A stretch of DNA of 64,000 nt from Terriglobia bacterium (GCA_963666975.2 CAXVYR010000003.1:800001-864000); one strand, 5' to 3'; counted from the first letter of the stretch, positions 1 to 12,319 are shown. Numbers and translations are program-made. The notes: generated by a model not told the origin, from the letters alone.

Positions 1-589
1 TGATGGTGCTCCACGACCAGATCAGCTTCCGCGCATTAAGAACCTGGGGATGATGGTAAGCCAACGGAACACGAATCTGTGGGAGACGTACCGCGGCGCG
101 TCGGTGATTGCCAAGCAGTATGGAATCGAGTACACCAATTGGACGGTGCCGCGCAGGAGTCTGACGGAGGCAGGCATCATGAGCACGTTTGAGATCGACC
201 GGCCTCTTCCGCACAAGGTGTTCTTCTTTATTACAAAGGGGATGAATCGGTACAACGACCGGGACCAGATGGTCTATGGGCCTGGGGAGAGGACGGATCG
301 GATTATCCAGTTGAAGGCCCTGACCGTATGGGGCGGATACTACGTGCTGCGGGAGGACCTGCTGGGGACGCTGGGGCCGGGGAAGTTTGCGGATTTCATT
401 TTGCTAGATCGGGATTTCCTGACGATCCCGGAAGCAGATATTCCGAAGATAGAGGTGCTGATGACGGTGGTCGGCGGAAAGACGGTGCATTTGAATGCGG
501 CGCTGGCAAGCGAGATCGGGATGCAGCCAGTGGGCGCAAGCACCTGGACAGAGCCGATCCCGGAAGGATGGGAACCAAAGGCTTATTGA
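1..589 (+). CDS. Amidohydrolase family protein (YtcJ/Amidohydro_3-like), 5'-truncated by the window edge
   Basis: C-terminal GTLGPGKFADFILLD...TVVGGKTV motif; near-identical to the C-terminus of the 622..2553 protein. Confidence 0.85.
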   Translation, partial: DGAPRPDQLPRIKNLGMMVSQRNTNLWETYRGASVIAKQYGIEYTNWTVPRRSLTEAGIMSTFEIDRPLPHKVFFFITKGMNRYNDRDQMVYGPGERTDRIIQLKALTVWGGYYVLREDLLGTLGPGKFADFILLDRDFLTIPEADIPKIEVLMTVVGGKTVHLNAALASEIGMQPVGASTWTEPIPEGWEPKAY

Positions 590-621
590 ACCGAATGTTT
601 GGTTTGAGGAAGGAGGCAGAG

Positions 622-2553
622 GTGAGAAAAGGAATGGATGTAGTACTGGCTGTGGTGTTAGCTTCTGGCTTGGCCTGGGCTCAACAAGCGAACGTAGCGG
701 CGAAGTTGGGTTATCCCCAGATGATTGTCTACAATGGCAAGATCGTGACGATGGATGACGCCTCGTTTGAGTCCCGTGTGGGGACGATTGCGCAGGCGAT
801 GGCCCTCCGGGACGGGAAAATCCTGGAGATGGGGACAAATGCGGAGGTGCGGGCATTGGCAGGGCCGCAGACGAGGCAGATTGATCTGAAGGGCCGAACG
901 GTGTTACCGAGCTTCATCATGACGCACGAGCACCCGGTGGACTGGGCCTTTACGGAACCCCGCGGTTTCCGGCATGTGTTCCCCAATGATGATGTGATCA
1001 TCTCTCGATGGCTGCCGAACCTGCCGGCGAGGGAACAGTTGGCGCTGTTTGAGCCAACGATGCGGGAGGCCGTGGCGAAAGCGAAGCCAGGGCAGTGGAT
1101 CCGGGTGATTCCCAACTGGGGCCCAGACTACGAATGGGCTGAACAATTTAGCGGGCCCCGTGGTGGATTCTGGAACGACTCCATCACGAAAGAATACCTC
1201 GATGTATTGGCGCCCAACAACCCGGTCTGCATCAGTAACGGCTTTACCAGCGCTTGCATGGGCAATACGCAGACTGTGGAAGAATATCGCAGTGTGCACC
1301 CGGCATTGGACCATTATGCAACTCTCCGCGTAGGCCTACCGCCGAATGAGGAAGTCGCCCGCCGGATCGAGCAATCGGGCAGGTTGCCACGTCCGGCGAA
1401 TGGCGATGTTCTGTTCAAGGGGAAACTGCCGGAGTTGGCTGATGTGCTCAAGGCACAACTCGATCTGTGGGCCAGCTATGGGATCACAACGTTTGGTGGC
1501 TGGTGGTATGCCTATTCTAATCTGCACGCATTCCACCTGCTGGATTCGAAAGGGGAAATGCCGGCGCGGCTTGCATTGGGGCATCGGGGGCCAGCGTGGG
1601 ACTTGGGCACGCTGCGAATGTTGGCTGGCATGTTGGGACACGGAACAGACCACTTATGGTTTATCGGAGCTTTCGGTAGTGGCGGCGGTTGCTTCTCGGT
1701 TCCGGAGAGGGCGGAGTGGACGGAGCAGCGGGGTGATAATCGGGAGAGTAATGACCCGAGGGGTGAGGGATGCAGTAATGCTCCCGGCACGCATGGCTAT
1801 GAAATGAATGTAAGGATCGCGGAATCCGGCCTCCGGTTTGCCACAATGCATACAGGGGGGGACAAAGGGATTGATTATCTCATGGATGCGATTGAAGAAG
1901 GGAGCAAGCGGGCCGGGATGACGCTGGAGCAGATTCGCGCCAAGCGGCATGCTTTTGATCATGGCGCGGGAGCTCCTCGACCGCAGCAGCTCCCTCGGAT
2001 TAAGAACCTAGGGATGATGATCAGCCAGTTGAACACGATTTTGTGGGAGACCCACCGGGGTGCGTCCGTGATCGCCAAGCAGTATGGGGTGGAGTACACC
2101 AACTGGGTGGTGCCCCGCAAGAGCGTAACGGAAGCGGGGATCATGAACACGTTTGAGATAGACCGGCCGCTGCCGCACAAAGTGTTCTTCTTCATCACGA
2201 AGGGCATGAACCGCTACAACGACCGGGACCAGATGGTCTATGGGCCTGGGGAGAGGACGGACCGGATTATCCAGTTGAAGGCCCTGACCGTATGGGGCGG
2301 ATACTACGTGCTGCGGGAGGACCTGCTGGGGACGCTGGGGCCTGGTAAGTACGCTGATTTCATCGTCCTGGACCGGGATTTCCTGACGATCCCGGAAGCA
2401 GATATTCCGAAGATAGAGGTGCTGATGACGGTGGTCGGCGGAAAGACGGTGCATTTGAATGCGACGCTGGCAAGCGAGATTGGGATGCAGCCAGTGGGCG
2501 CAAGCACCTGGACAGAGCCGATCCCGGAGGGATGGGAACCAAAGGCTTATTGA
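622..2553 (+). CDS. Secreted amidohydrolase family protein (YtcJ/Amidohydro_3-like)
   Basis: GTG at 622 after AGGAGG (611-616); signal peptide; NGKIVT, IDLKGRTVLP, THEH, MH, DH and PGKYADFIVLD motifs. Confidence 0.85.
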   Translation: MRKGMDVVLAVVLASGLAWAQQANVAAKLGYPQMIVYNGKIVTMDDASFESRVGTIAQAMALRDGKILEMGTNAEVRALAGPQTRQIDLKGRTVLPSFIMTHEHPVDWAFTEPRGFRHVFPNDDVIISRWLPNLPAREQLALFEPTMREAVAKAKPGQWIRVIPNWGPDYEWAEQFSGPRGGFWNDSITKEYLDVLAPNNPVCISNGFTSACMGNTQTVEEYRSVHPALDHYATLRVGLPPNEEVARRIEQSGRLPRPANGDVLFKGKLPELADVLKAQLDLWASYGITTFGGWWYAYSNLHAFHLLDSKGEMPARLALGHRGPAWDLGTLRMLAGMLGHGTDHLWFIGAFGSGGGCFSVPERAEWTEQRGDNRESNDPRGEGCSNAPGTHGYEMNVRIAESGLRFATMHTGGDKGIDYLMDAIEEGSKRAGMTLEQIRAKRHAFDHGAGAPRPQQLPRIKNLGMMISQLNTILWETHRGASVIAKQYGVEYTNWVVPRKSVTEAGIMNTFEIDRPLPHKVFFFITKGMNRYNDRDQMVYGPGERTDRIIQLKALTVWGGYYVLREDLLGTLGPGKYADFIVLDRDFLTIPEADIPKIEVLMTVVGGKTVHLNATLASEIGMQPVGASTWTEPIPEGWEPKAY

Positions 2554-2638
2554 ACCGAATGTTTGCTTTGAAGAAGGAGGCCCAGATTGTGATTGAACAG
2601 GGGCGGTAGGAGTACAACACCCGGAAGCCGCGCTCGGC

Positions 2639-2901
2639 TATAGAGTCTGTGTGAAAACTTGGTTTTTACGTCAGGGCATGACTTCAGTCATGCCGTAACG
2701 CGTTTGAAATGAAAGCCCCTTCCTTGCGGCTTTACAGGCTGCTGAAAAAAGGCTCGAAAGGGTCAAATCGGAATTTTGCCGAATGACGATTCAATAACTT
2801 ACGAGCCAACGTTTCGGCGAAGAGCGCCAAAAGTTACCACTTTGGTTCTTTTTTCAGCAGCCTGTTCAGCCGCTGAGGGTAGTTATCACACAGACTCTAT
2901 A
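2639..2901. mobile_element. MITE-like element with ~21-bp terminal inverted repeats, carrying a REP-like palindrome
   Basis: TATAGAGTCTGTGTGAAAACT (2639-2659) / AGTTATCACACAGACTCTATA (2881-2901), 1 mismatch; internal GGCATGACTTCAGTCATGCC palindrome. Confidence 0.75.
2734..2865. mobile_element. Nested MITE-like element with perfect 18-bp terminal inverted repeats
   Basis: ACAGGCTGCTGAAAAAAG (2734-2751) / CTTTTTTCAGCAGCCTGT (2848-2865); splits a GCGGC-TTTA-GCCGC hairpin. Confidence 0.8.
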
Positions 2902-2919
2902 GGCCCCCGGAGCCATTTC

Positions 2920-3050
2920 TATCTTCTACAAACAAAGTGGCTGATTCTATATTTGCCACGCTTCGGAACTGCTAAGACCATTTCTGCCACCAACATATTG
3001 AACATTATAGGGTTATCCTGATCCCACCAACAGGCGATTGCGGAAGCACC
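2920..3050 (+). repeat. 131-bp direct repeat, copy 1 (left-truncated MITE)
   Basis: 13 mismatches counted by eye against 6571..6701, no gaps. Confidence 0.9.
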
Positions 3051-3152
3051 TTGCAGACCTCCGAGAATCCCACCATAGGCAATAGACCATAGGTTCGAAA
3101 TGCACTAGATAGTGGTAGAATTCGACGATGTTAGCGATTCGAGACCGGACCC

Positions 3153-6100
3153 ATGAAAGACGCAACGGCACCTTATAGTGCTGTCTATCATTTCCGCGAC
3201 GACCACCTGCTTGAGACGTTTATCGCGAAGATTCCCCGTTCTCAACTGGTCGAATACTTGCGTAGCAATGACTCGCTGCGAAACCGATATTTTCGGGGGT
3301 TTCGCATCTCCAACACTGTCCCCACCCGCCAACAGGTTCTGACCGCATACAAGAAGGAGATCATCGATCGCAACAACGGCAAACTCGCATCTTCGCTGTG
3401 TGCCCATTGGATTCGCCAACAGCCGGTGCTCGCAAGCGTTGCATTGAAATCTCTCGGTATTCAGTCTGAGGATCCTGCTGATGCAAAATTGTGGATCAAC
3501 GACGTTCACGCGAAGCTCGACCTAGAGCAACACGAAGATAGCCTCCGAGCACTAGTCCGCGCGCTGGCTATGCAGTTCTCCAACGAGGATGTTCACATCT
3601 TCGTCTCGATCATTTCCTATGGCACCAATCAGCAGACCCTGCGGAACCTCGTCGAGGGAGAACTGCTGAATGTGGCGAACGACCCTCAGATAGTGAAAGA
3701 CCGGATCGAGGGCTACCTGGAAGCAGCGAAAACGAAGATCAAGGATCTTGAACAGTTTCGCAGCGAACTCGAGTGTCAGCTAGAAGGCGAGTTGACTAAA
3801 GCGCGAGGAGCGCTGGACGGCATGCTACGGGAGCATGAAGAAGTTGCAACACGTCTCGCCCAAGAAGAAACATCGACCCAAGGGCTGACGAATCAACTCG
3901 AAGAGATCAAAGCAAAACTCCTCGAACGACAGCAGGCACGAAATGCCACAAAGAACCAAAAGGTGAAACTGTCCAAGACCATCAAGCGCCAACGCGAGGG
4001 ATTGTCGACAACACAGGCCACCTTCGAGAAGCGGCTCAAGGACGTTAGCCAAAGTCTTGATGAACAATCGAGTCATATGGCCGAACTCGCCACAGAATTG
4101 CAACAGATCAAAGAACGGATTCTCGCGGAAAAAAGTAAGCAAGTTCCAATGACACCAGTACCGGCAATTGCTCAGCCCGAACCATCCGCCGTGGTTCCTA
4201 TTCCTGGACCAACACCCTTGCCATTAACATCAGCACCGGAACCACACAAGCGAGCCCTTAACATTCTAGGAAATAACGCGATCTGCTATCAAGGAATCCA
4301 GAGGACGTTCCGAAATGCTGTCGTGACGTTCCTGCGTGATCGCTTGGCCCGCCTCTTCCCCGAGGATCACATCCAGCGAATGAAAAAGACGTTCGGGGAA
4401 GATTGGGAGAAAGCTGCACAGGACGCAAGCCGGTCGAGAGAAAATTTAGGTACAACGACCATCGTGCGCGACGAATACGATCTCCTCGGAACAAACCACT
4501 TTTATGGTATCTTCGAGCGTTTTTATGACAAGATTTTCACCCCTGAAGCTGGCCAATCCCCCAAAATCCCAAAGCCAGTGAAAGCCAGGTTCCTTGGCAA
4601 CCTGAAAGCTATTAAGGACTGCCGAGACCCACTGTCGCATTCGGTGGAAGAAGAGATCTCCTTTGAGGAAGCACACCATTTCCTTTACCTTGCCCAGGAG
4701 ATCCTTAAATGGTTGGGGTGCGACGCACAGGCGGCAGAACTCTCCACGTTAGCAGCACAGCTCGGCGGTGGCGAACCAGAAACGGCGTCGCTCCTCCGCC
4801 GGCTTCCTAGCGAAGACAGCATCTGCCTTGAGTTTGTCGGCCGCGACACGCTGCTCAAAGATCTCACCGGCTGCTTTGCCAATCCTGACAACAAACGGTG
4901 CCTCCTCGCTGGCGACGGCGGGAAGGGAAAGTCTGCGGCTGCCTACCGGTTCGCGCAGAGAATGCCGTCCTCAACCGAGCGCTTTCAGCTCATCGTCTGG
5001 CTGAGTGCGAAGCAACGCAGGTTCCGTGAAGGAGCACCCACCACCATCGAATCGCCGGACTTCACCACCGCTGGAGAAGCCGTCGATCGGCTCCTGACCG
5101 AATACGGCGCAATAACGCAGGACATGGACAAACCCCTCGCCGACAAGAAACGCCTCCTTTTCGAATACCTCAATGAGTTTCCAGCCTTTATCATCGCGGA
5201 CGATATTGACACAGTGCTCGAAGACGATGAAGTCGTGAGCCTCTTCACGCACGAAATTCCGAACACTCAATCTGCCGTCCTACTTACGTCTCGACGGGCT
5301 ATTCCCGGAATTCGCAAATTCATTGTCGAAGGGTTCGACCCAGTCGAGGCTGAAGAGTTCATCAAGTCCCGCATTCAACTCTACGGTCTTAAAACCGTAG
5401 CTTTCACGCCGGCAATCATTAAGGAAATAACAAAAGTTTCAGACAGTTCGCCACTCTACATGGATGATCTCATGCGCCTCACGCGGATCGTGGAGGTTCA
5501 GAAAGCCATCAGGATGTGGGCGGAGAGAACAGGCGATGAAGCTCGCAAGTACGCCCTACAGAGAGAAATCGAACAGCTCTCTGGTGACGCAAAAAGAGTC
5601 CTCATTGCGGGTGCGGTAACAGATGACTCCATTTCCTTTGTAGAGTTGGAGAGTATTCTGGAATTTTCTGAAGATCAGCTCTTGTCTGCGCTGACTGAAC
5701 TCCAAACGTTGTTCCTTTTTCCGAAGGAACCTGCTGTCGAAGGCGAACAGCGCTACCAGATCAATCTCAACACAAAGAAACTCGTTCGGCTCGTCGAAGG
5801 CGCCAGCGATCTCTACGCGCGTATCGACACTCGCAGCAAAGCGCTAGCGGGCAAACTCCCGGATGTCGGGTACGGTATTGTGAGCTCCCTGATCAGACAG
5901 GCGCACCTCCGCCTCAATGCGGGGCAAAACACAGAGGCCGAAGCAATTCTCCTCGGAGCCATCGAAAAGTACCCGAATGTGCCGGATTTGCAGGGCTTTC
6001 TCGGTTACGCCTACAAACGCATGCATCGCATCGTGGACGCACGCATCCAGTTCGAGGCAGCCTTCAAGCTCACGGCCAAGAACCCCGAAATGTATCTGCA

Positions 6101-6533
6101 CTGGATCAAGCTCGAGATCGCGGAGAAAGAATGGTCCAAGGCCATCACGGTTGCCGACCGGGCGCTAAAGATCCTCCCGGATGCCTACGCAATTGTCGAG
6201 CGAAATGCCTACGCAATTGTCGAGCGAAAGGTGTATGCGCTACGACAGGCAGGCTTTGACTTTCATAAAAGACTATTTCGCGAAAAGGCAGAAAGAATGT
6301 GGACCGACGCTGTCGAGGAGGTCAAAAGACGATTCAAGCCCCCGGAGGCTCTCCCGGCGGGCGCGCGTGAGTTGAACGCGTCCATGTATCTCAATATCGT
6401 GATTTGCCTCGAAATGCTCGGAAAAAGTCGGGATCGAAACTACTGGCTTGAACACTGGGAGAAAGAGCACCCCGACGATCCCCAAGTGGCTAGGCAGAAA
6501 GAATATATCAAACACAAGCGAGGGGGCCTGTAA
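3153..6533 (+). CDS. Coiled-coil + Swt1-like HEPN + STAND (NB-ARC-like) NTPase + TPR protein; putative antiviral NLR/Avs-like protein
   Basis: Heptad-rich region ~aa180-330; Pro-rich linker; RDPLSH (RxxxxH); FVGR, Walker A GDGGKGKS, Walker B FIIADDID, sensor VLLTSR; C-terminal TPR-like helices. Confidence 0.8.
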   Translation: MKDATAPYSAVYHFRDDHLLETFIAKIPRSQLVEYLRSNDSLRNRYFRGFRISNTVPTRQQVLTAYKKEIIDRNNGKLASSLCAHWIRQQPVLASVALKSLGIQSEDPADAKLWINDVHAKLDLEQHEDSLRALVRALAMQFSNEDVHIFVSIISYGTNQQTLRNLVEGELLNVANDPQIVKDRIEGYLEAAKTKIKDLEQFRSELECQLEGELTKARGALDGMLREHEEVATRLAQEETSTQGLTNQLEEIKAKLLERQQARNATKNQKVKLSKTIKRQREGLSTTQATFEKRLKDVSQSLDEQSSHMAELATELQQIKERILAEKSKQVPMTPVPAIAQPEPSAVVPIPGPTPLPLTSAPEPHKRALNILGNNAICYQGIQRTFRNAVVTFLRDRLARLFPEDHIQRMKKTFGEDWEKAAQDASRSRENLGTTTIVRDEYDLLGTNHFYGIFERFYDKIFTPEAGQSPKIPKPVKARFLGNLKAIKDCRDPLSHSVEEEISFEEAHHFLYLAQEILKWLGCDAQAAELSTLAAQLGGGEPETASLLRRLPSEDSICLEFVGRDTLLKDLTGCFANPDNKRCLLAGDGGKGKSAAAYRFAQRMPSSTERFQLIVWLSAKQRRFREGAPTTIESPDFTTAGEAVDRLLTEYGAITQDMDKPLADKKRLLFEYLNEFPAFIIADDIDTVLEDDEVVSLFTHEIPNTQSAVLLTSRRAIPGIRKFIVEGFDPVEAEEFIKSRIQLYGLKTVAFTPAIIKEITKVSDSSPLYMDDLMRLTRIVEVQKAIRMWAERTGDEARKYALQREIEQLSGDAKRVLIAGAVTDDSISFVELESILEFSEDQLLSALTELQTLFLFPKEPAVEGEQRYQINLNTKKLVRLVEGASDLYARIDTRSKALAGKLPDVGYGIVSSLIRQAHLRLNAGQNTEAEAILLGAIEKYPNVPDLQGFLGYAYKRMHRIVDARIQFEAAFKLTAKNPEMYLHWIKLEIAEKEWSKAITVADRALKILPDAYAIVERNAYAIVERKVYALRQAGFDFHKRLFREKAERMWTDAVEEVKRRFKPPEALPAGARELNASMYLNIVICLEMLGKSRDRNYWLEHWEKEHPDDPQVARQKEYIKHKRGGL

Positions 6534-6535
6534 GT

Positions 6536-6701
6536 GGTGCTTCCGCAATCTAGTGTTGTTAGCGCATCCTTATCTTCAACAAACAAAGTGGCTGATTCTA
6601 TATTTGCCACACTGCAGAACCGCTAAGACCATTGCTGACAGCAACATATTGAAAATAATAGGGTTATGCTGATTCCACCAACAGTCGATTGCGGAAGCAC
6701 C
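6536..6701. mobile_element. MITE-like element with perfect 15-bp terminal inverted repeats (contains copy 2 of the 131-bp repeat)
   Basis: GGTGCTTCCGCAATC (6536-6550) / GATTGCGGAAGCACC (6687-6701). Confidence 0.75.
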
Positions 6702-6733
6702 CACTGAAGATCCGTCCGTTATGCGAGAATGGG

Positions 6734-7117
6734 ATGATGGCCCGCGTGAGAATGGACAAGTGGCTCTGGGCCGCCCGATTCTTCAAGACGCGCTCGCTCG
6801 CTGCACGGGCATGTGAACTCGGCAGGATTACGTCCAACGGACAACAAACCAAGTCCTCGCGCGAGGTCCGCGTCGGCGACCTGTTGCAAGTGAAGAGCGA
6901 CGCAGGCGACTTTCAGGTGGAGGTTGTGCTCCTCAGCGAGATGCGCGGCCCGGCGGCGGTTGCGCAGACGCTCTACCGTGAGACAGAGACGAGCCGGGAG
7001 TTGCGGCTAAAGTTGGCAGAGGAGCGTAAAGCGATGCCGCATTTCGAGGGGTCGAGGGAAGGCAAACCATCGAAACGCGATCGCCGTGAACTCGATCGGT
7101 TTCGGGGTAGAGTGTGA
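6734..7117 (+). CDS. hslR: RNA-binding S4 domain protein, heat shock protein Hsp15
   Basis: RMDKWLWAARFFKTRSLA and GKPSKRDRR motifs. Confidence 0.9.
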   Translation: MMARVRMDKWLWAARFFKTRSLAARACELGRITSNGQQTKSSREVRVGDLLQVKSDAGDFQVEVVLLSEMRGPAAVAQTLYRETETSRELRLKLAEERKAMPHFEGSREGKPSKRDRRELDRFRGRV

Positions 7118-7239
7118 CCACAGAACACTAAAATTGATTTTACTACCTATTTTTCGTCTGAGAGACCTGGGGCAATGGGGACAGATGGGTTAGAGATATT
7201 TCTCAAACGGACGGGGCTACTTTGGATGCTCCAGACATC

Positions 7240-10200
7240 TCAGAACGACAGCCGGAGAGCGAACTGAATTTGACGGGGGGTGGTGGCTGTTGACCTTATT
7301 TTTCCGGCGCTCGGATTGATTGTCCCTCCATCACGGAAAATCGCTGTCGGAGGTCCGCCCGGCGCCTGAAAATTCGGATGGTTGGCAAGATTGAAAAACT
7401 CCGCCCGGAACTGCAGGTTGCGTTCAGAATCGATTCTAAACTCTTTCTGGAGGGAGAAGTCCAGGTTGACGATACCAGGACCGGTGAGGGTAGTACGGCC
7501 CGCATCTCCGATGTACCCAGGTTCTGGTGGTTGGAAAGCACAAGGATCAAAATACAAGTCTGGCCCTCCCAGCTTTAGGTCCGGCTCAATCAGCATCTGT
7601 CCGGTGAGCGGATGCCTGCAACCAGCGGTTACTCCGTTGGTTGGGTCACGGTTGTAGAAAGGTGTCAGATTCGGACGTTGGGAAACAAATAGGAATCCTG
7701 TGGAGGGAATTCCGTAAGAAACACCAAAGGCCGATCCGGAACGCAACGATAGAATTCCTCCGAACCTCCACCCCCCGATCAACGATGATAGCCATCCAGA
7801 GTTGAACCACCGCTGGCCGGAACCAATCGGGGGACTGTAGAAATACCGCAGCGAGAAATTATGGCGCCTGTCGAATGTGGAAAGGCCTCGATTCAACTTC
7901 CGATCCAGTCCGTAATGTTCCTGCAGGCCACGAACGGACGAGGCGTCGTCCACACTCTTGGAGTAGGTATAATTGGCTCCCAAAGTGAAATTCCTCCCGA
8001 AATCGCCGTTGATAGAGACATAGCCGGAATTGTAAAAGGATTGTGCATCCGTTAATGTCCTCTGAATACTGCCAAAGGCTGGGTTCATGACATTGTCCGG
8101 CGGCGTCTGAGGCCGGTTCGGATCTGAGGAGGAATATAGGTTCCCATCTGGCTTAACCCATTCCGGATCGGGAGGTAGAAACAGTTTTCCGTCCGGCTGG
8201 CGTACCGCGAAAGGATACAAATTGGCTTCAAACGTCCGGAGGAGATGGTTGCCTCGCGCGCCGACGTAGCTGATCTCTGCCGTCCATCTCGGCGTCAGTT
8301 GCCTTTGAAGCGATAGGTTATACCGATAAATCACAGGGTTCTTGGGGTTGTGGTAATCGAAAATTCGGAGTTGGCCGGCATCTCCCCTCGCAGCAGCCAC
8401 GGCATCAGGGAATGTTTCCAAGGCCTCGAAGTTGGGCCGAAGGCTGGGTTCATGACTGTCCGGCGGCGTCTGAGGCCGGTTCGGATCTGAGGAGCAATAT
8501 AGGTTCCCATCTGGCTTAACCCATTCCGGATCGGGAGGTAGAAACAGTTTTCCGTCCGGCTGGCGTACCGCGAAAGGATACAAATTGGCTTCAAACGTCC
8601 GGAGGAGATGGTTGCCTCGCGCGCCGACGTAGCTGATCTCTGCCGTCCATCTCGGCGTCAGTTGCCTTTGAAGCGATAGGTTATACCGATAAATCACAGG
8701 GTTCTTGGGGTTGTGGTAATCGAAAATTCGGAGTTGGCCGGCATCTCCCCTCGCAGCAGCCACGGCATCAGGGAATGTTTCCAAGGCCTCGAAGTTGGGC
8801 CGAAGTGCATACTTATAAAATGGCAAGGTCCTTCGGAGGTTCTCCACAGTGTATTCAAGAAGAGGCTCATGGTAAATTCCAACTCCCGCACGAACCTGAG
8901 TCCGCCGGTCATTGCCGGGTGACCAACTCAAACCGAAGCGGGGAGCCAGATTTCGCAGGCTGGGATTGGAACTCATTAGCTGACCCAGGCGCGGTTCAGA
9001 ATCAAGAAGTACGTCGAGCAAATAGACGTCCCGCCCCCGCGTGTCGTGAATTTTCGTGGTGAACTCATAACGGAGGCCTAGACTGAGCGCAATATTCGGA
9101 CGGAGTTGGTAATCGTCTTGGAAGTAGAATCCGAGGAGGGTCTGTCGAAAGTCGCGTTCCGAACTAGAACCGGGCAACGCTAGTTTGAGCTTGGTACCCT
9201 CTCCTAGCCGGAAGAGGTTCTCCAGGCTGCTGAAAGTCCATATGCCGCCCAGCGCATGGTTATCAAACACATTCCATTGAAAGCGCTCGATCAACGTCCC
9301 CAGCTTCCAAGTATGGGATCCGCTGCGGTAGATGAGATCGTCTGCAAATTGGAATGAATTCATTGTCTTACCGGCCGGTGCATCAAAATGTGCTGCGAAA
9401 CGGGTTAATCCTGCTACATGAAGTTGGCCATACCGCGGGGCACTGGGCACAAAGAACAGCGAGCGAGGAATCTCCCGCGCGTGCGCACTATTAAATGTCG
9501 ATGTCGGCCGTGTGTAGCTGGCGCGAAACGTGTTTAACAAAGTGGGGGAAAAGAAATGGGTTTCGGCTAAAGTCAGATACTGCTGTCTACTCTTAATGCG
9601 CCACGGAAGCTCTGCCGTACTGCCAACGGCCATTTGGTCGGCATCGTCAAAGGTATAGCGGCCGAATAAGGCGTCGTGATTGCTCAGTCGCTGGTCAATC
9701 CTGGCCGCGAAGAAATATTCGCTGGTAGGTAATCGAGCAGATGTGCGATTTTCAGCAACTCCCGTGGGATCGCCGTTACGATCCAGCAATGGCACCTGGG
9801 GAAGGGGGTAGAGCGCTAGATAGGGTAACACCTTCGTATTAGCAATAATGGGTTCTCTTCCCGGCAGAGAAAGTATTCCGCGGCGCGCTTCATTGTCGGG
9901 GACGAAACTCACGACGTTTTGGGTCAGCCGATTAAGAAGCACCTCGAAGCTAGTCATAAAAAAGGTTTTTTCTCGGATCATCGGGCCTGTTACTGTCGCT
10001 CCGAACTGGTTGCGCTTGAAAGGCGGCTTCTCGGGCGGGTCAAAGAAGTCGTGGGCATCCATCTTGCTGTTCCGGAGAAACTCGAACAAGCCCCCATGCC
10101 ATTCGTTGCTCCCCGAGCGGGTAATTGCATTCATCACCCCACCGGCAGCACGCCCGTACTGTGCCCCGTAGTTGGCGGAGAATATCTGCACCTGCAGCAC

Positions 10201-10911
10201 GGCGTCGGCTCCCAACTGCCCTCCAGCGGCACTGCGCGGCACTCGATTGTCCGTGCCGTTGATGTCCGTCCCGTCCAACATAAAGGCGTTCCACTCGCCG
10301 CGCCCGCCTGAGACTGTAATGCTGGAACTCTGACCTCCCTGCCGTCCGCCACCTGAAGGGTCGCTCACTCCAGCCTGCAAGGTGAGCAACTGTGTATAGC
10401 TTCGCCCGTTCATCGGCAACCCGACCAATTCAGACTCATCAATTATGGTGGTAGCCACAGCGGATTGCGACTGCCCAGTCGTGGTGTCCTCTCTCTGCTG
10501 AGAACCCACGGGGCTGGGTTCCACTCGAAACTCCTCCCGCGTCGTCTCTCCTGCCTCTAACGCCACCCATTTTCGTTGCTGGGTGAGAAAGCCAACTGCT
10601 GACACTATCAAACGATACCTTCCCGGTGCCAGTCCTCTCAGTTCGTATTCACCACGAGCGTCCGTTTCAGTTTTCAATGCCTTCGTGGAAGAGACGTCCT
10701 CTACTGTCAGCACTGCCTGTGCCACTGGCGACCCGGAGATCGAGAGCACGCTGCCTCTCAAGGTCGCCGTTTCCTCTCCCCGAGCCCCCGAATCAAGAAC
10801 AAAGAGAAATCCCACTCCCAGCAGAACTCTACAAATCTTTTGCCATCGTGTGATTTCGTACTTTGCGAGAGCTGCAACTTGGCTGGGAAGGAATATCAGA
10901 GTGTGCAACAT
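7240..10911 (-). CDS. TonB-dependent receptor with N-terminal carboxypeptidase-regulatory-like domain (Oar-like)
   Basis: LPMNGRSY, TRSGSNEWHG.LFEFLRNS..DA.DFF, RNQFG and C-terminal RQIQFALRLSF; ATG at 10911 preferred over the overlapping longer ORF. Confidence 0.9.
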   Translation of the reverse strand: MLHTLIFLPSQVAALAKYEITRWQKICRVLLGVGFLFVLDSGARGEETATLRGSVLSISGSPVAQAVLTVEDVSSTKALKTETDARGEYELRGLAPGRYRLIVSAVGFLTQQRKWVALEAGETTREEFRVEPSPVGSQQREDTTTGQSQSAVATTIIDESELVGLPMNGRSYTQLLTLQAGVSDPSGGGRQGGQSSSITVSGGRGEWNAFMLDGTDINGTDNRVPRSAAGGQLGADAVLQVQIFSANYGAQYGRAAGGVMNAITRSGSNEWHGGLFEFLRNSKMDAHDFFDPPEKPPFKRNQFGATVTGPMIREKTFFMTSFEVLLNRLTQNVVSFVPDNEARRGILSLPGREPIIANTKVLPYLALYPLPQVPLLDRNGDPTGVAENRTSARLPTSEYFFAARIDQRLSNHDALFGRYTFDDADQMAVGSTAELPWRIKSRQQYLTLAETHFFSPTLLNTFRASYTRPTSTFNSAHAREIPRSLFFVPSAPRYGQLHVAGLTRFAAHFDAPAGKTMNSFQFADDLIYRSGSHTWKLGTLIERFQWNVFDNHALGGIWTFSSLENLFRLGEGTKLKLALPGSSSERDFRQTLLGFYFQDDYQLRPNIALSLGLRYEFTTKIHDTRGRDVYLLDVLLDSEPRLGQLMSSNPSLRNLAPRFGLSWSPGNDRRTQVRAGVGIYHEPLLEYTVENLRRTLPFYKYALRPNFEALETFPDAVAAARGDAGQLRIFDYHNPKNPVIYRYNLSLQRQLTPRWTAEISYVGARGNHLLRTFEANLYPFAVRQPDGKLFLPPDPEWVKPDGNLYCSSDPNRPQTPPDSHEPSLRPNFEALETFPDAVAAARGDAGQLRIFDYHNPKNPVIYRYNLSLQRQLTPRWTAEISYVGARGNHLLRTFEANLYPFAVRQPDGKLFLPPDPEWVKPDGNLYSSSDPNRPQTPPDNVMNPAFGSIQRTLTDAQSFYNSGYVSINGDFGRNFTLGANYTYSKSVDDASSVRGLQEHYGLDRKLNRGLSTFDRRHNFSLRYFYSPPIGSGQRWFNSGWLSSLIGGWRFGGILSLRSGSAFGVSYGIPSTGFLFVSQRPNLTPFYNRDPTNGVTAGCRHPLTGQMLIEPDLKLGGPDLYFDPCAFQPPEPGYIGDAGRTTLTGPGIVNLDFSLQKEFRIDSERNLQFRAEFFNLANHPNFQAPGGPPTAIFRDGGTINPSAGKIRSTATTPRQIQFALRLSF
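8076..8805. repeat. Intragenic tandem duplication of ~365 bp in the TonB receptor
   Basis: 8076.. and 8441.. copies differ by one 2-bp indel and one substitution; net insertion 363 bp. Confidence 0.95.
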
Positions 10912-11008
10912 TAGCCTTTCTTCTGGAATTTCCTTTATAAAGTCCTGGTCGTGTAAATTATACACCCAACACCTTTTGTGGGGGATTTTTGCGGGAGCAG
11001 AGCGTCCG

Positions 11009-12319
11009 CTATGGCACGCCCGGTGAACTCTTCCAATAGGCGGGTAGATTCGGTTTGGTATCGAGGAGGATCCCCAGCACGGCCCGGCGGTCCTCCGCCG
11101 ACAGGCGCGCGAACTTCGGGCTGGCATCCTTGCCGGTCAGGGCACCGGTCGGGACACCAGTCAGGACATCGTAGAGCGCGCGCAAAACCTCTTCCCGAGC
11201 TGCGTCCGGAATGCTGTCGAACGCCTCGCTGTACACCATATAACTCAGCGGATAGCGAAACAGCCGCTCCTGCAGGTCGAAATCACGCAGGGAGCGCCCC
11301 TGCGCATCGCGCGGGCCGCGCTGCTCGAAAGTTTCCGTAAACGTGGAGTCCCCTTCGATGCGTTTCTGAATCGGCGCTTCGTCCGCAAAAAGCATATAGG
11401 TCACCAGTTCATCGACGAGGAAATCCAGCCGCTGGCGAAACTCCTCCAGCTTCCCTTCTTCCGCAGCAACCCGCACCTCCCAGCCAATCCGCAGGATCAA
11501 GTTCGTCATACGGGTCTGATGCTCAAGCGTCATCAACGCAACAATATCGCTGGAGGGACTCAGGTAGGCGGATTTGTTAAACGGCTCCTCCCAGCCTGCC
11601 AGGTTCCGGCCTTCGCTGCGGCCAGCCCCAGCGTTGTCCGCGATGGCCACTCCCCTGTGTGTGATCCCGCCAAGCGTTCCGCTGACGTACCATCCGCCCC
11701 AACGGTCTTCCAATGGAATGCGGTGATCGGTGGCGAACGCGCGCGTGAAGGGCGACCCATCGGGCCGGGGGACCGTGGAACTGACCACGATGCCCGGAAC
11801 ATTCAGCGTCGCAGGACCCATGTGGCACTGCAAGCAGGACATCACTTGGCGGCTGAAGCTGGGCGCACCGGACGAACGATTCGCCAGCGTGTAGAAGACC
11901 ATGCCTTGGGTGGGATCGAGAGCCGCCACTTCCAGCACCTGGCTGTTTCGCACAAACGCAATGGATACGCTGTCATTGAAGTAAATCGCCCGCGGCCTTG
12001 CCGGAGAAATGCGGGAAACCTGCGAGCTGGTTTTGGAAAAGACCAGCACCTGCGAATCGACGCTGATTCCAAGGTTCTGCAGTAAGCTGGGCAGATATCC
12101 CCGCTCCGTGTCAAACTCCAGCTTCGCTTCCCCCTTCTCCATCTGACTTTGCAGACGGGCTACGGGGTCATCTGCCGGACGTTCCAGATATTGGATTGCG
12201 CTGTGATCGAAAGGGATAGGAGAGTAATCAAAATTTGCGTCATGCCCTTGCAGCGCCCACCCGGTCCCCATAAACACCATGCTCACGGTTCCCAGCAGCA
12301 ACAAGCATCGAGCGATCAC
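11009..12319 (-). CDS. Secreted monoheme c-type cytochrome domain protein
   Basis: GTG at 12319 with GGAGG; signal peptide; CLQCH heme motif; SQVLVFSKTS and RWGGWYV motifs. Confidence 0.7.
   Translation of the reverse strand: MIARCLLLLGTVSMVFMGTGWALQGHDANFDYSPIPFDHSAIQYLERPADDPVARLQSQMEKGEAKLEFDTERGYLPSLLQNLGISVDSQVLVFSKTSSQVSRISPARPRAIYFNDSVSIAFVRNSQVLEVAALDPTQGMVFYTLANRSSGAPSFSRQVMSCLQCHMGPATLNVPGIVVSSTVPRPDGSPFTRAFATDHRIPLEDRWGGWYVSGTLGGITHRGVAIADNAGAGRSEGRNLAGWEEPFNKSAYLSPSSDIVALMTLEHQTRMTNLILRIGWEVRVAAEEGKLEEFRQRLDFLVDELVTYMLFADEAPIQKRIEGDSTFTETFEQRGPRDAQGRSLRDFDLQERLFRYPLSYMVYSEAFDSIPDAAREEVLRALYDVLTGVPTGALTGKDASPKFARLSAEDRRAVLGILLDTKPNLPAYWKSSPGVP

Follow-up and report, generated by a model that had tools for sequence, protein, structure and literature searches.

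A Terriglobia HEPN-STAND-TPR protein with an additional N-terminal module: a candidate NLR-like conflict protein

What use may a bacterium have for a single protein that joins a putative RNase, a STAND (signal transduction ATPase with numerous domains) module and an array of tetratricopeptide repeats (TPRs), and that carries 368 further residues in front of them? The question is raised by gene P0001, found at positions 3153..6533 of a 64,000-nt stretch (CAXVYR010000003.1:800001-864000, hereafter the window) of the 4.23-Mb genome of a Terriglobia bacterium (GCA_963666975.2); the gene, and all the protein features located below, lie on the plus strand. An earlier interpretation of this DNA, hereafter the sequence-only reading, had proposed an undescribed antiviral system resembling Avs and other bacterial NLR (nucleotide-binding leucine-rich repeat) proteins. 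Our analyses confirm the observation and partly support that interpretation. The reading that we favour, with a probability of about 0.62, is that the product would be a single-chain NLR-like (STAND) conflict protein built on the Avs plan, in which the sensing of a phage cue would lead to oligomerisation, to the activation of an RNase of the HEPN (named for nucleotide binding in higher eukaryotes and prokaryotes) type and to abortive infection. While the trigger, the oligomerisation, the RNase activity and the protection are what we infer, support comes from the anatomy of the protein, the conservation of its catalytic and NTP-binding residues, a HEPN-like fold, a patchy distribution, the defence and mobile neighbourhoods of homologues, and the swapping of modules.

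The HEPN-STAND-TPR core

The gene is intact and consists of one open reading frame (ORF) of 1126 codons, from the ATG at 3153 to a stop codon ending at 6533, and its start codon agrees with the N-termini of 27 full-length homologues of the same length class (alignment A1). The translated product displays, in this order, an all-helical N-terminal domain, a coiled coil, a proline-rich linker, a HEPN domain, an NB-ARC-like STAND NTPase, a winged-helix region and TPRs. The motifs invoked by the sequence-only reading are all in place: RDPLSH at residues 491-496, Walker A (GDGGKGKS) at 587-594 and Walker B (FIIADD) at 679-684, followed by C-terminal TPRs whose models pass their gathering scores.

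The assignment of residues 369-525 (4257..4727) to a Swt1-like HEPN domain is based on an AlphaFold2 model, on structural comparison of this model with VIA and on the conserved Rx4H motif RDPLSH (4623..4640), which is predicted to be catalytic. RDPLSH alone is not evidence, because an RxxxxH is expected by chance from the composition of the protein (mean of 1.61, with at least one in 1633 of 2000 shuffles); the invariance of the motif in the family and the predicted fold are what count instead. R491 and H496 are invariant in the 28 long forms of alignment A1 (28/28), in all 26 sequences of alignment A2, short forms included (26/26), and in each of the 22 domain crops of alignment A4 (22/22), among them Dehalococcoidia proteins at 28-36% identity, whose spacing is Rx5H, inside the Rx4-6H range. 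The model of this segment has a pLDDT (predicted local distance difference test) of 86.8 and a pTM (predicted template-modelling score) of 0.84, and VIA, comparing it with 48,161 PDB chains, ranks first the C-terminal domain of yeast Swt1 (4pqz_A; Z 7.7, root-mean-square deviation 3.8 Å, 127/136 residues). The top 17 VIA matches also hold Csm6 (4rgp and 6tug), the AF_0298 HEPN (2hsb), AbiF (8vz6), the sacsin HEPN (3o10), 1wwp and Cas13 (6vrc), HEPN proteins making up at least 8 of the 17; Roquin (4txa), TT1696 (1ufb) and AbiA (8oz7), which we take to contain HEPN domains as well, appear in the same list. An hhalign comparison of the domain alignment with a protein positive for HEPN_Swt1 (PF18731), encoded next to one of the homologues (locus L028), gave a probability of 39.6% and an E-value of 3.1e-4 over 63 columns, and supersedes a run with the whole-protein alignment in which the probability was 1.6%. 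The domain also stands in the position of an effector, the short forms of the family starting directly at the HEPN. In Cas13, Csm6, RNase L and many toxins, the part that kills is a HEPN RNase.

Several results weigh against this assignment and against the explanation built on it. The Z score of 7.7 is below 8, a range for which VIA warns that the value can come from a common helical arrangement, and the hhalign match, at 39.6%, spans only the first helices, that is the N-terminal half of the domain. No Pfam HEPN family matches the isolated domain (E <= 10), and none appears among the 25 most frequent Pfam families over 26 members of the family. The domain profile found 0 matches among PDB sequences, phmmer and profile searches of the PDB likewise gave no name, and Foldseek against the PDB returned nothing at E <= 0.001 for residues 369-525. 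A search for shorter or stand-alone relatives of the domain yielded 26 proteins, all apparently fragments of the same family. The HEPN fold that the sequence-only reading had placed at residues ~370-530 is supported by the invariance of R491/H496 and by Swt1 HEPN as top VIA match, with Foldseek negative. Since the tool warns that a Z below 8 may reflect a common helical arrangement, we regard the HEPN assignment as well supported but not proven; it is likely that the domain belongs to the Swt1-like HEPN subfamily.

The NTPase, or NOD (nucleotide-binding oligomerisation domain), of the STAND module occupies residues 548-745 (4794..5387). STAND proteins are recognised by a Walker A motif GxxGxGK[ST], a Walker B motif hhhhDD and, further on, an arginine-bearing strand, and the protein offers FVGR, Walker A (4911-4934), Walker B FIIADDID (5187-5210) and TSRR. 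FVGR, the P-loop GDGGKGKS, FIIADDID, LLTSRR/TSRR and SPLYMDDL are invariant or nearly so in the family. Against Pfam, the query itself matches AAA_16 with an E-value of 8.5e-6 at 26.8 bits (cut-off 32.6), NACHT with 0.006 and NB-ARC with 0.017. Among the 25 full-length short forms of A2, AAA_16 matches 25/25 (best E 1e-8), NB-ARC 24/25 (best E 1e-6), NACHT 20/25 and nSTAND_NTPase5 17/25, and the best PDB match of the NTPase profile is 9h2l_A, annotated 'NB-ARC domain-containing protein' (E 9.8e-4). The following region, at residues 746-900 (5388..5852; SPLYMDDL, ELQTLFLFPK), has a mean identity of 69% with many invariant columns and is considered the helical and winged-helix part of the STAND module, the winged helix being presumed from its position within STAND architecture. 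The C-terminus, residues 901-1126 (5853..6530), forms a TPR-like array that is presumably a sensor or an autoinhibitory domain: Pfam TPR matches cover residues 915-1017, TPR_14, TPR_19 and TPR_2 score above their gathering scores on the isolated C-terminal segment, and the profile matches the TPRs of OGT (E 4e-10). Taken together, these domains are best described as a predicted divergent STAND module of NB-ARC/AAA_16 type with the usual order of NTPase, helical/winged-helix region and repeats.

The N-terminal module and the two length forms

A word-indexed protein search returned 164 proteins at E <= 0.001, which fall into two length classes: long forms of ~1100-1160 aa that align over the whole query, and short forms of ~750-780 aa that cover its last two thirds and begin at the region matching residue ~370. 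A FastTree phylogeny of the shared core, with 74 rows made up of 36 long and 38 short sequences, places every long form in one clade nested among the short ones, with an SH-like support of 93. The older protein was therefore of HEPN-STAND-TPR type and gained the 368 N-terminal residues in a single event. One 771-aa protein from a 2419-nt contig groups with the long forms and was probably cut at the contig end. The parts of the protein differ in their conservation: the mean pairwise identity among long forms is 65% for the HEPN domain, 68% for the NTPase, 69% for the helical/winged-helix region and 63% for the TPR array; it is 42% for the N-terminal domain, 22% for the coiled coil, which is the least conserved folded part, and 13% for the linker.

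The N-terminal domain, residues 1-185 (3153..3707), had been described as unrecognised by the sequence-only reading, and so it remains: it is an all-alpha domain without a known family or fold. AlphaFold2 gives residues 1-190 a pLDDT of 88.5 with 12 helices, and the family conserves a patch LRNRxFxGFR (R43, F47, G49, R51) as well as W86 and S152. Residues 1-186 meet nothing in Pfam better than an E-value of 0.03, far under the curated scores; Foldseek found no match at E <= 0.001 among the PDB or the viral structures of BFVD, and the ESM Atlas gave no usable match. The best VIA score is a Z of 5.9 in a heterogeneous set of unrelated proteins, and the first ~90 residues yield noise-level matches to the SAP domain of FAN1 (Z 5.3), the CARD of NOD1 (Z 5.0) and BinCARD (Z 4.8). 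The domain is followed by a coiled coil at residues 186-330 (3708..4142), defined by heptad periodicity and composition; it contains no proline, is rich in E, L, K and Q, has a hydrophobic periodicity of 3.5 residues that only 5/500 shuffles equalled, and matches only proteins of coiled-coil type (SMC, Rad50, JetC, LmuB). A flexible linker, residues 331-368 (4143..4256), with 12 prolines in 38 residues and a length that varies, joins it to the HEPN domain. The long coiled coil and the proline-rich linker of the sequence-only reading were therefore found as claimed.

In a full HMMER pass over 1.84 billion representatives, the N-terminal domain occurs in only 74 proteins, namely long forms, fragments and a set of proteins of ~1480-1500 aa. 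The latter are metagenomic STAND proteins (P0147, P0154, P0157, P0164 and P0173) that share the N-terminal domain and coiled coil with the query (30% identity over residues 11-360, E 2e-35) and then continue with ~450 aa without a family, an AAA_22/AAA_16 NTPase and a C-terminal PRTase-CE domain. Their C-terminus matches the PADLOC model PRTase_III-A, the phosphoribosyltransferase (PRTase) effector of type III-A retrons, with an E-value of 7.9e-36. It is worth noting that many cluster members of this PRTase-bearing family are split into pieces. We also considered a split-gene origin for the domain, which was rejected: no separate copy exists as a neighbouring gene in any of 30 loci of other than long forms (0/30), and tblastn over 35 loci detects the domain in 5 long-form loci only.

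Judged from sequence, the N-terminal domain and coiled coil appear to be a rare portable head common to two different STAND proteins, each of which has a defence-type domain. Most likely, the N-terminal domain, the coiled coil and the tether would together form a second regulatory or sensor part, or a stalk for pre-assembly. It is tempting to go further and to hypothesise that the head represents an undescribed portable module of NLR-like immunity, placed on two unrelated STAND chassis (HEPN; PRTase), where it would act as a second sensor, giving a two-input receptor, or as a pre-pairing stalk, giving a spring-loaded RNase, so that the long form would define a new five-part class of prokaryotic NLR; we advance this extension tentatively, as a possibility that we hold with rather low confidence. 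The reuse of the module on a PRTase-bearing STAND protein suggests a general building block of prokaryotic immunity, for which databases have no model so far.

The taxonomic occurrence of the family is uneven. Searches in 40 relatives, of which 2 share the genus, 11 the family and 27 the class, revealed no true homologue, only weak TPR matches, and the N-terminal domain was not found in 200 other Acidobacteriota genomes. A pattern scan of 185,579 species representatives ended with 35 confirmed loci, in which long forms belong to Acidobacteriaceae/Terriglobales bins, and short forms to Acidobacteriota, Bryobacteraceae, Verrucomicrobia, Chloroflexota/Dehalococcoidia, Proteobacteria, Dormibacteria and one Nitrososphaera bin. 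On plasmids, only distant relatives of the chassis are present, on 6 of 72,556. The gene is a rare accessory gene with a patchy spread.

Genomic surroundings and rival explanations

The surroundings of homologues were analysed at 26 loci, in which genes were called crudely as the longest non-overlapping ORFs; 146 neighbours were scanned with Pfam, and PADLOC was run on 34 hand-picked proteins (32 of those neighbours and 2 further out) from 14 of the 26 loci. No neighbour is conserved across the 26 loci. Strong PADLOC matches lie within three genes in 7 loci (L022, L027, L028, L032, L037, L039 and L053), with weaker or generic ones in L026 and L051; these are raw counts, not an enrichment. The matches comprise RT_UG19 and CapP in L022, a DruE-like helicase, HerA and a methylase in L027, a type IIG restriction-modification protein with HKD-Snf2 in L037, PDC-S01 in L039 and AbiEi in L053. 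In L028 (6143-7337), a DUF5343 and HEPN_Swt1 gene pair matching the PADLOC candidate PDC-M34A/B is directly upstream of the short form. In L032 (4018-10283), the short form shares 4 nt with a DrmMI-like methylase gene, at the stop of the latter, and is placed between a group of DpdE/DrmD-like helicase and methylase genes and the ZacA/ZacC genes; from this gene order, the STAND gene would appear to be embedded in a composite defence locus. Mobile-element genes were encountered as well: a resolvase in L023, an IS1595 transposase in L025, DDE_3 and a TrwC relaxase in L026, and IS21 in L049. The context of homologues is therefore variable and often of defence or mobile type, with no single conserved housekeeping setting.

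The gene itself stands alone, as had been claimed: it is single-copy in its genome and has non-coding flanks of 599 nt and 155 nt on its two sides. The claim that it is less GC-rich than its surroundings also holds, the GC content of the gene being 0.532 against 0.573 for the window, a value equally low in 7/304 equal-sized windows. The upstream neighbour (328-2553) is of the Amidohydro_3 family; downstream, a small gene with an S4 domain (6689-7117) precedes a minus-strand gene (7240-11127) for a 1295-aa CarboxypepD_reg/outer-membrane-protein (OMP) beta-barrel receptor of TonB type. No integrase or transposase is found at this locus. As regards these neighbours, ORF 328-2553 probably starts later than listed, given a signal-peptide-like stretch from near codon 103; at least five Amidohydro_3/Amidohydro_1 paralogues lie upstream (window 1-2553 and G000:C3:786001-800000, L059), tandem paralogues also being present at the orthologous place in the sister genome G001; and the receptor gene holds a 363-nt tandem duplication at 8071-8805 (2.0 copies, 98% matches) that repeats ~121 aa of the barrel.

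The sequence-only reading had further noticed that the gene is bracketed by repeats, which is correct as a description: two copies, 2920-3050 and 6571-6701, are 90% identical over 131 nt. Both stem from an element that is dispersed, measures ~166 nt, ends in terminal inverted repeats of 23 nt and resembles a miniature inverted-repeat transposable element (MITE), of which the genome contains 8 full-length copies plus fragments and the sister genomes G002 and G009 many. The upstream copy (2920..3050) is truncated at its 5' end and bears a sigma-70-like site at 2925-2953, and the downstream one (6536..6701) is full, with terminal inverted repeats at 6536-6558 and 6679-6701. Since the repeat is dispersed genome-wide, the bracket is not specific to the gene and gives little information on how the gene arrived, and its candidacy as cassette ends or att sites was rejected. 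The sigma-70-like site (TCTACA/TCAACA-17-TATATT) is carried by both local copies and directed into the downstream gene; short-read contigs break at the repeat. Farther upstream, the intergenic region 2573-2902 has the appearance of another small family of repeats, or else of a structured element: it contains nested inverted repeats (2638-2659/2881-2902 and 2726-2751/2848-2873), and several genomes of the family share its short segments 2573-2643 and 2642-2732 at 83-95% identity. Rfam gave no match over 2400-7400. An empty site could not be defined in the sister genomes: in G001, synteny ends just behind the amidohydrolase, and G002 has nothing but the S4 gene in common.

Other assemblies speak to whether the sequence is intact. 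The same protein is found in a second one, with 1126 of 1128 positions identical and a 2-aa insertion. In a third, the gene is in three pieces on one 4.5-Mb contig (P0194, P0195 and P0196, of 217, 418 and 537 aa and at least 90% identical to the query), which may reflect either pseudogenisation or sequencing errors of the long-read frameshift kind. Between 2930 and 6608, the window agrees without a difference with contigs of four runs that come from four studies; as these contigs show no variant within the gene, they are uninformative on selection. No RNA run was listed among the sequencing runs. The TPR array contains a perfect 24-nt tandem duplication (6181..6228), in-frame within a TPR helix, that encodes NAYAIVER twice; it is present in the second assembly and in the contigs of the 4 runs and missing from the 27 other long forms, and is thus lineage-specific.

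How might such a protein work? In STAND and NLR proteins, a ligand that binds to the repeat domain frees the protein from a state locked by ADP, upon which the NOD oligomerises and the N-terminal effectors, now close to each other, become active; in HEPN RNases, two domains are needed to build the active site. By analogy, we propose that at rest the TPR array and the ADP-bound NTPase would keep the protein closed, until the TPR array, perhaps together with the N-terminal module, binds a signal of infection, which is most likely a phage protein. The closed state would then be released, nucleotide exchanged and the NTPase/winged-helix modules would oligomerise, whereupon the HEPN domains of neighbouring chains would meet and their paired Rx4-6H motifs (R491/H496) form a metal-independent RNase. 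RNA cleavage would stop translation, leading to growth arrest, and the infection would be aborted. The head of the long form, with its N-terminal domain and coiled coil on a flexible proline-rich tether, may add a second input or pre-pair the chains. As for its origin, the presumed ancestor would be a HEPN-STAND-TPR protein of ~760 aa, to which one acidobacterial lineage would have added the alpha-helical domain, the ~145-aa coiled coil and the proline-rich tether.

To the difficulties already raised by the HEPN domain must be added others that concern the protein as a whole. The TPR array is short (~225 aa) and strongly conserved (63% mean identity), not diversifying; for comparison, the 2026 census, which has 589 STAND clades, considered Avs sensors of at least 400 aa (PMC13581612). 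The locus itself is no defence island, its neighbours being amidohydrolase paralogues, the S4 protein, the TonB-type OMP, methylmalonyl-CoA mutase, acyl-CoA dehydrogenase, GAPDH and PGK, and most Dehalococcoidia loci sit among varied housekeeping genes. Neither 50,697 phage records nor, in a pattern-based scan, the viral contigs of IMG/VR yielded a relative. PADLOC-DB v2 gave only coiled-coil noise for the query and no match at E <= 0.001 for 6 short forms; no model of a described system in this database matches the protein. Finally, the full-text literature, with subscription papers outside our searches, offered no experiment on HEPN-STAND-TPR proteins.

Part of these observations would fit a non-immune role, in which a signalling STAND protein of MalT/AfsR type would convert a metabolite or stress signal into controlled RNA turnover by its HEPN domain, with no anti-phage role. 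The metabolic and housekeeping context in its own genome and at most Dehalococcoidia loci, together with the short and conserved TPR array, is what such a regulator could show, and defence and non-defence STAND clades are interspersed in the phylogeny published in 2026 (PMC13581612). Against it stand an extremely patchy distribution (none in 40 relatives, and yet several phyla) with no conserved neighbour, the repeated position of homologues beside or inside defence and mobile genes along with a low GC content, and an effector swap on the chassis, HEPN versus Schlafen/AlbA_2, that is described below. We consider this explanation unlikely, albeit the one that survives best among the alternatives; if the protein were only a regulator, it would instead represent one of the rare cases in which a STAND protein controls an RNase in normal physiology.

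The same mobile neighbours may be read in another manner, the gene being a weapon or an addiction module of mobile elements, that is, a toxin-like RNase that excludes competing elements or stabilises its carrier and not an antiviral sensor of the host. Nothing resembling an antitoxin accompanies the gene as a conserved partner, the phage collections hold no relative, the 72,556 plasmids hold only distant chassis relatives (on 6 of them), and its own locus is devoid of integrase and transposase; these facts make the explanation a rather improbable one, even with a resolvase, an IS1595 transposase, a DDE_3 transposase and a TrwC relaxase at most three genes away from long forms (L023, L025, L026), with a chassis relative on a conjugative plasmid and with MITE-like repeats flanking the gene here. 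Its mechanism would, moreover, overlap with that of the conflict protein that we favour.

It is more doubtful still that the HEPN domain of the long form acts as an RNA-binding sensor or an inactive scaffold and leaves the output to the N-terminal domain, for instance as an adaptor that recruits an effector in the way of death-like effector-associated domains. This domain does sit at the far N-terminus, the usual position of effectors and adaptors, its first half has weak SAP and CARD matches, and the HEPN domain of eukaryotic Swt1 is thought to be inactive (PMC3710099). Yet long forms, too, keep the motif's R and H without exception (28/28), the ancestral short forms do without the N-terminal domain, the Z scores are at noise level, and no partner gene with this domain lies near any locus. 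The least probable explanation, that residues 369-525 form a non-HEPN helical bundle with a chance RDPLSH in a STAND-TPR protein of other output, could appeal to the 1633/2000 shuffles, to the lack of Pfam HEPN, Foldseek and PDB-profile matches and to a Z of only 7.7, and is disfavoured on account of R and H invariant down to 28% identity (Rx5H in distant members), of a HEPN at the top of 48,161 chains and at least 8 in the top 17, of the N-terminal helix aligning with a Pfam HEPN_Swt1 protein, and of the Swt1-like HEPN assigned to this architecture class by profile methods in 2013 (PMC3710099).

Comparison with known systems

The proposal that the system is undescribed has to be tempered, since Table 1 of Anantharaman et al. 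2013 (Biol Direct 8:15, PMC3710099) lists Swt1-type HEPN + STAND ATPase + TPR (+S1), with Npun_F6454, MED222_16016 and Desac_1927 as examples, the HEPN being 'mostly active', assigned as Swt1-like by profile methods and predicted to belong to a conflict system. Likened by architecture only, the short form of ~760 aa, which is also the core of the long one, corresponds to that entry: an N-terminal HEPN of the Swt1/Abi2 group with Rx4-6H, then STAND and TPRs. The protein of the window differs from the listed class by its 368 extra N-terminal residues and by having no S1 domain.

With Avs1-5 and with the Avs7-21 proteins reported in Nature in 2026 (PMC13581612), our protein shares a plan in which one polypeptide has an effector at its N-terminus, the STAND NTPase in its middle and a TPR-like sensor at its C-terminus, together with the modularity of effectors, a patchy horizontal spread and, judged from the raw counts above, what may be a frequent association with defence genes. 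It departs from them in its effector, a HEPN instead of a nuclease, SIR2, TIR or protease, in a TPR array of only ~225 aa, and in the extra domain and coiled coil before the effector. The term 'HEPN' is absent from six supplementary text files of that article, and its main text has it only for a non-STAND Streptomyces protein.

HEPN and Schlafen are listed as enzymatic effectors on bacterial NLR-type NTPases of the NACHT group, or bNACHT proteins (Kibby et al., preprint 10.1101/2022.07.19.500537). The protein is like these in fusing a HEPN RNase domain to an NLR-type NTPase, and unlike them in that its NTPase scores better with AAA_16 and, among short forms, NB-ARC than with NACHT. To our knowledge, no bNACHT of HEPN-STAND-TPR architecture has been tested, and the literature that we searched held no tested STAND or NLR-type sensor driving a HEPN RNase.

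A distant relative of the chassis is WP_040140559.1 (L061, 4386-6947), from the conjugative plasmid pRetIE4771b of Rhizobium etli, which has a homologous STAND-TPR chassis (26% identity over residues 544-1008, E 3e-28). In this protein of 853 aa, a Schlafen/AlbA_2 domain takes the N-terminal position of the HEPN, and neither the N-terminal domain nor the coiled coil is present. Such swapping of effectors on one chassis is typical of Avs-like proteins. It is worth noting that WP_040140559.1 is annotated just as an 'RNA-binding domain-containing protein' and that a gene of the thermonuclease family adjoins it. The P0147-type proteins, on the other hand, have the N-terminal domain, the coiled coil and a STAND NTPase in common with ours, and differ in showing ~450 unassigned residues instead of the HEPN, a different NTPase (AAA_22/AAA_16), no TPRs and a C-terminal PRTase.

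The interest of the locus lies mainly in the unexplained N-terminal module and in a compact single-gene model of NLR-driven HEPN activation. As this compact single gene has catalytic and P-loop residues that clearly lend themselves to mutation, and exists in two natural versions, with and without the head, it provides a direct way to ask how NLR oligomerisation activates a dimer-dependent RNase, and the two forms allow the contribution of the added N-terminal module to be tested. In terms of what is already described, the HEPN-STAND-TPR core is a catalogued architecture, given the entry in Table 1 of Anantharaman et al., whereas both the head (coiled coil and N-terminal domain) and the fact that a PRTase-bearing STAND protein has it too appear undescribed; were the head indeed a portable immune module, the long form would stand as a new class of prokaryotic NLR and not merely as another Avs.

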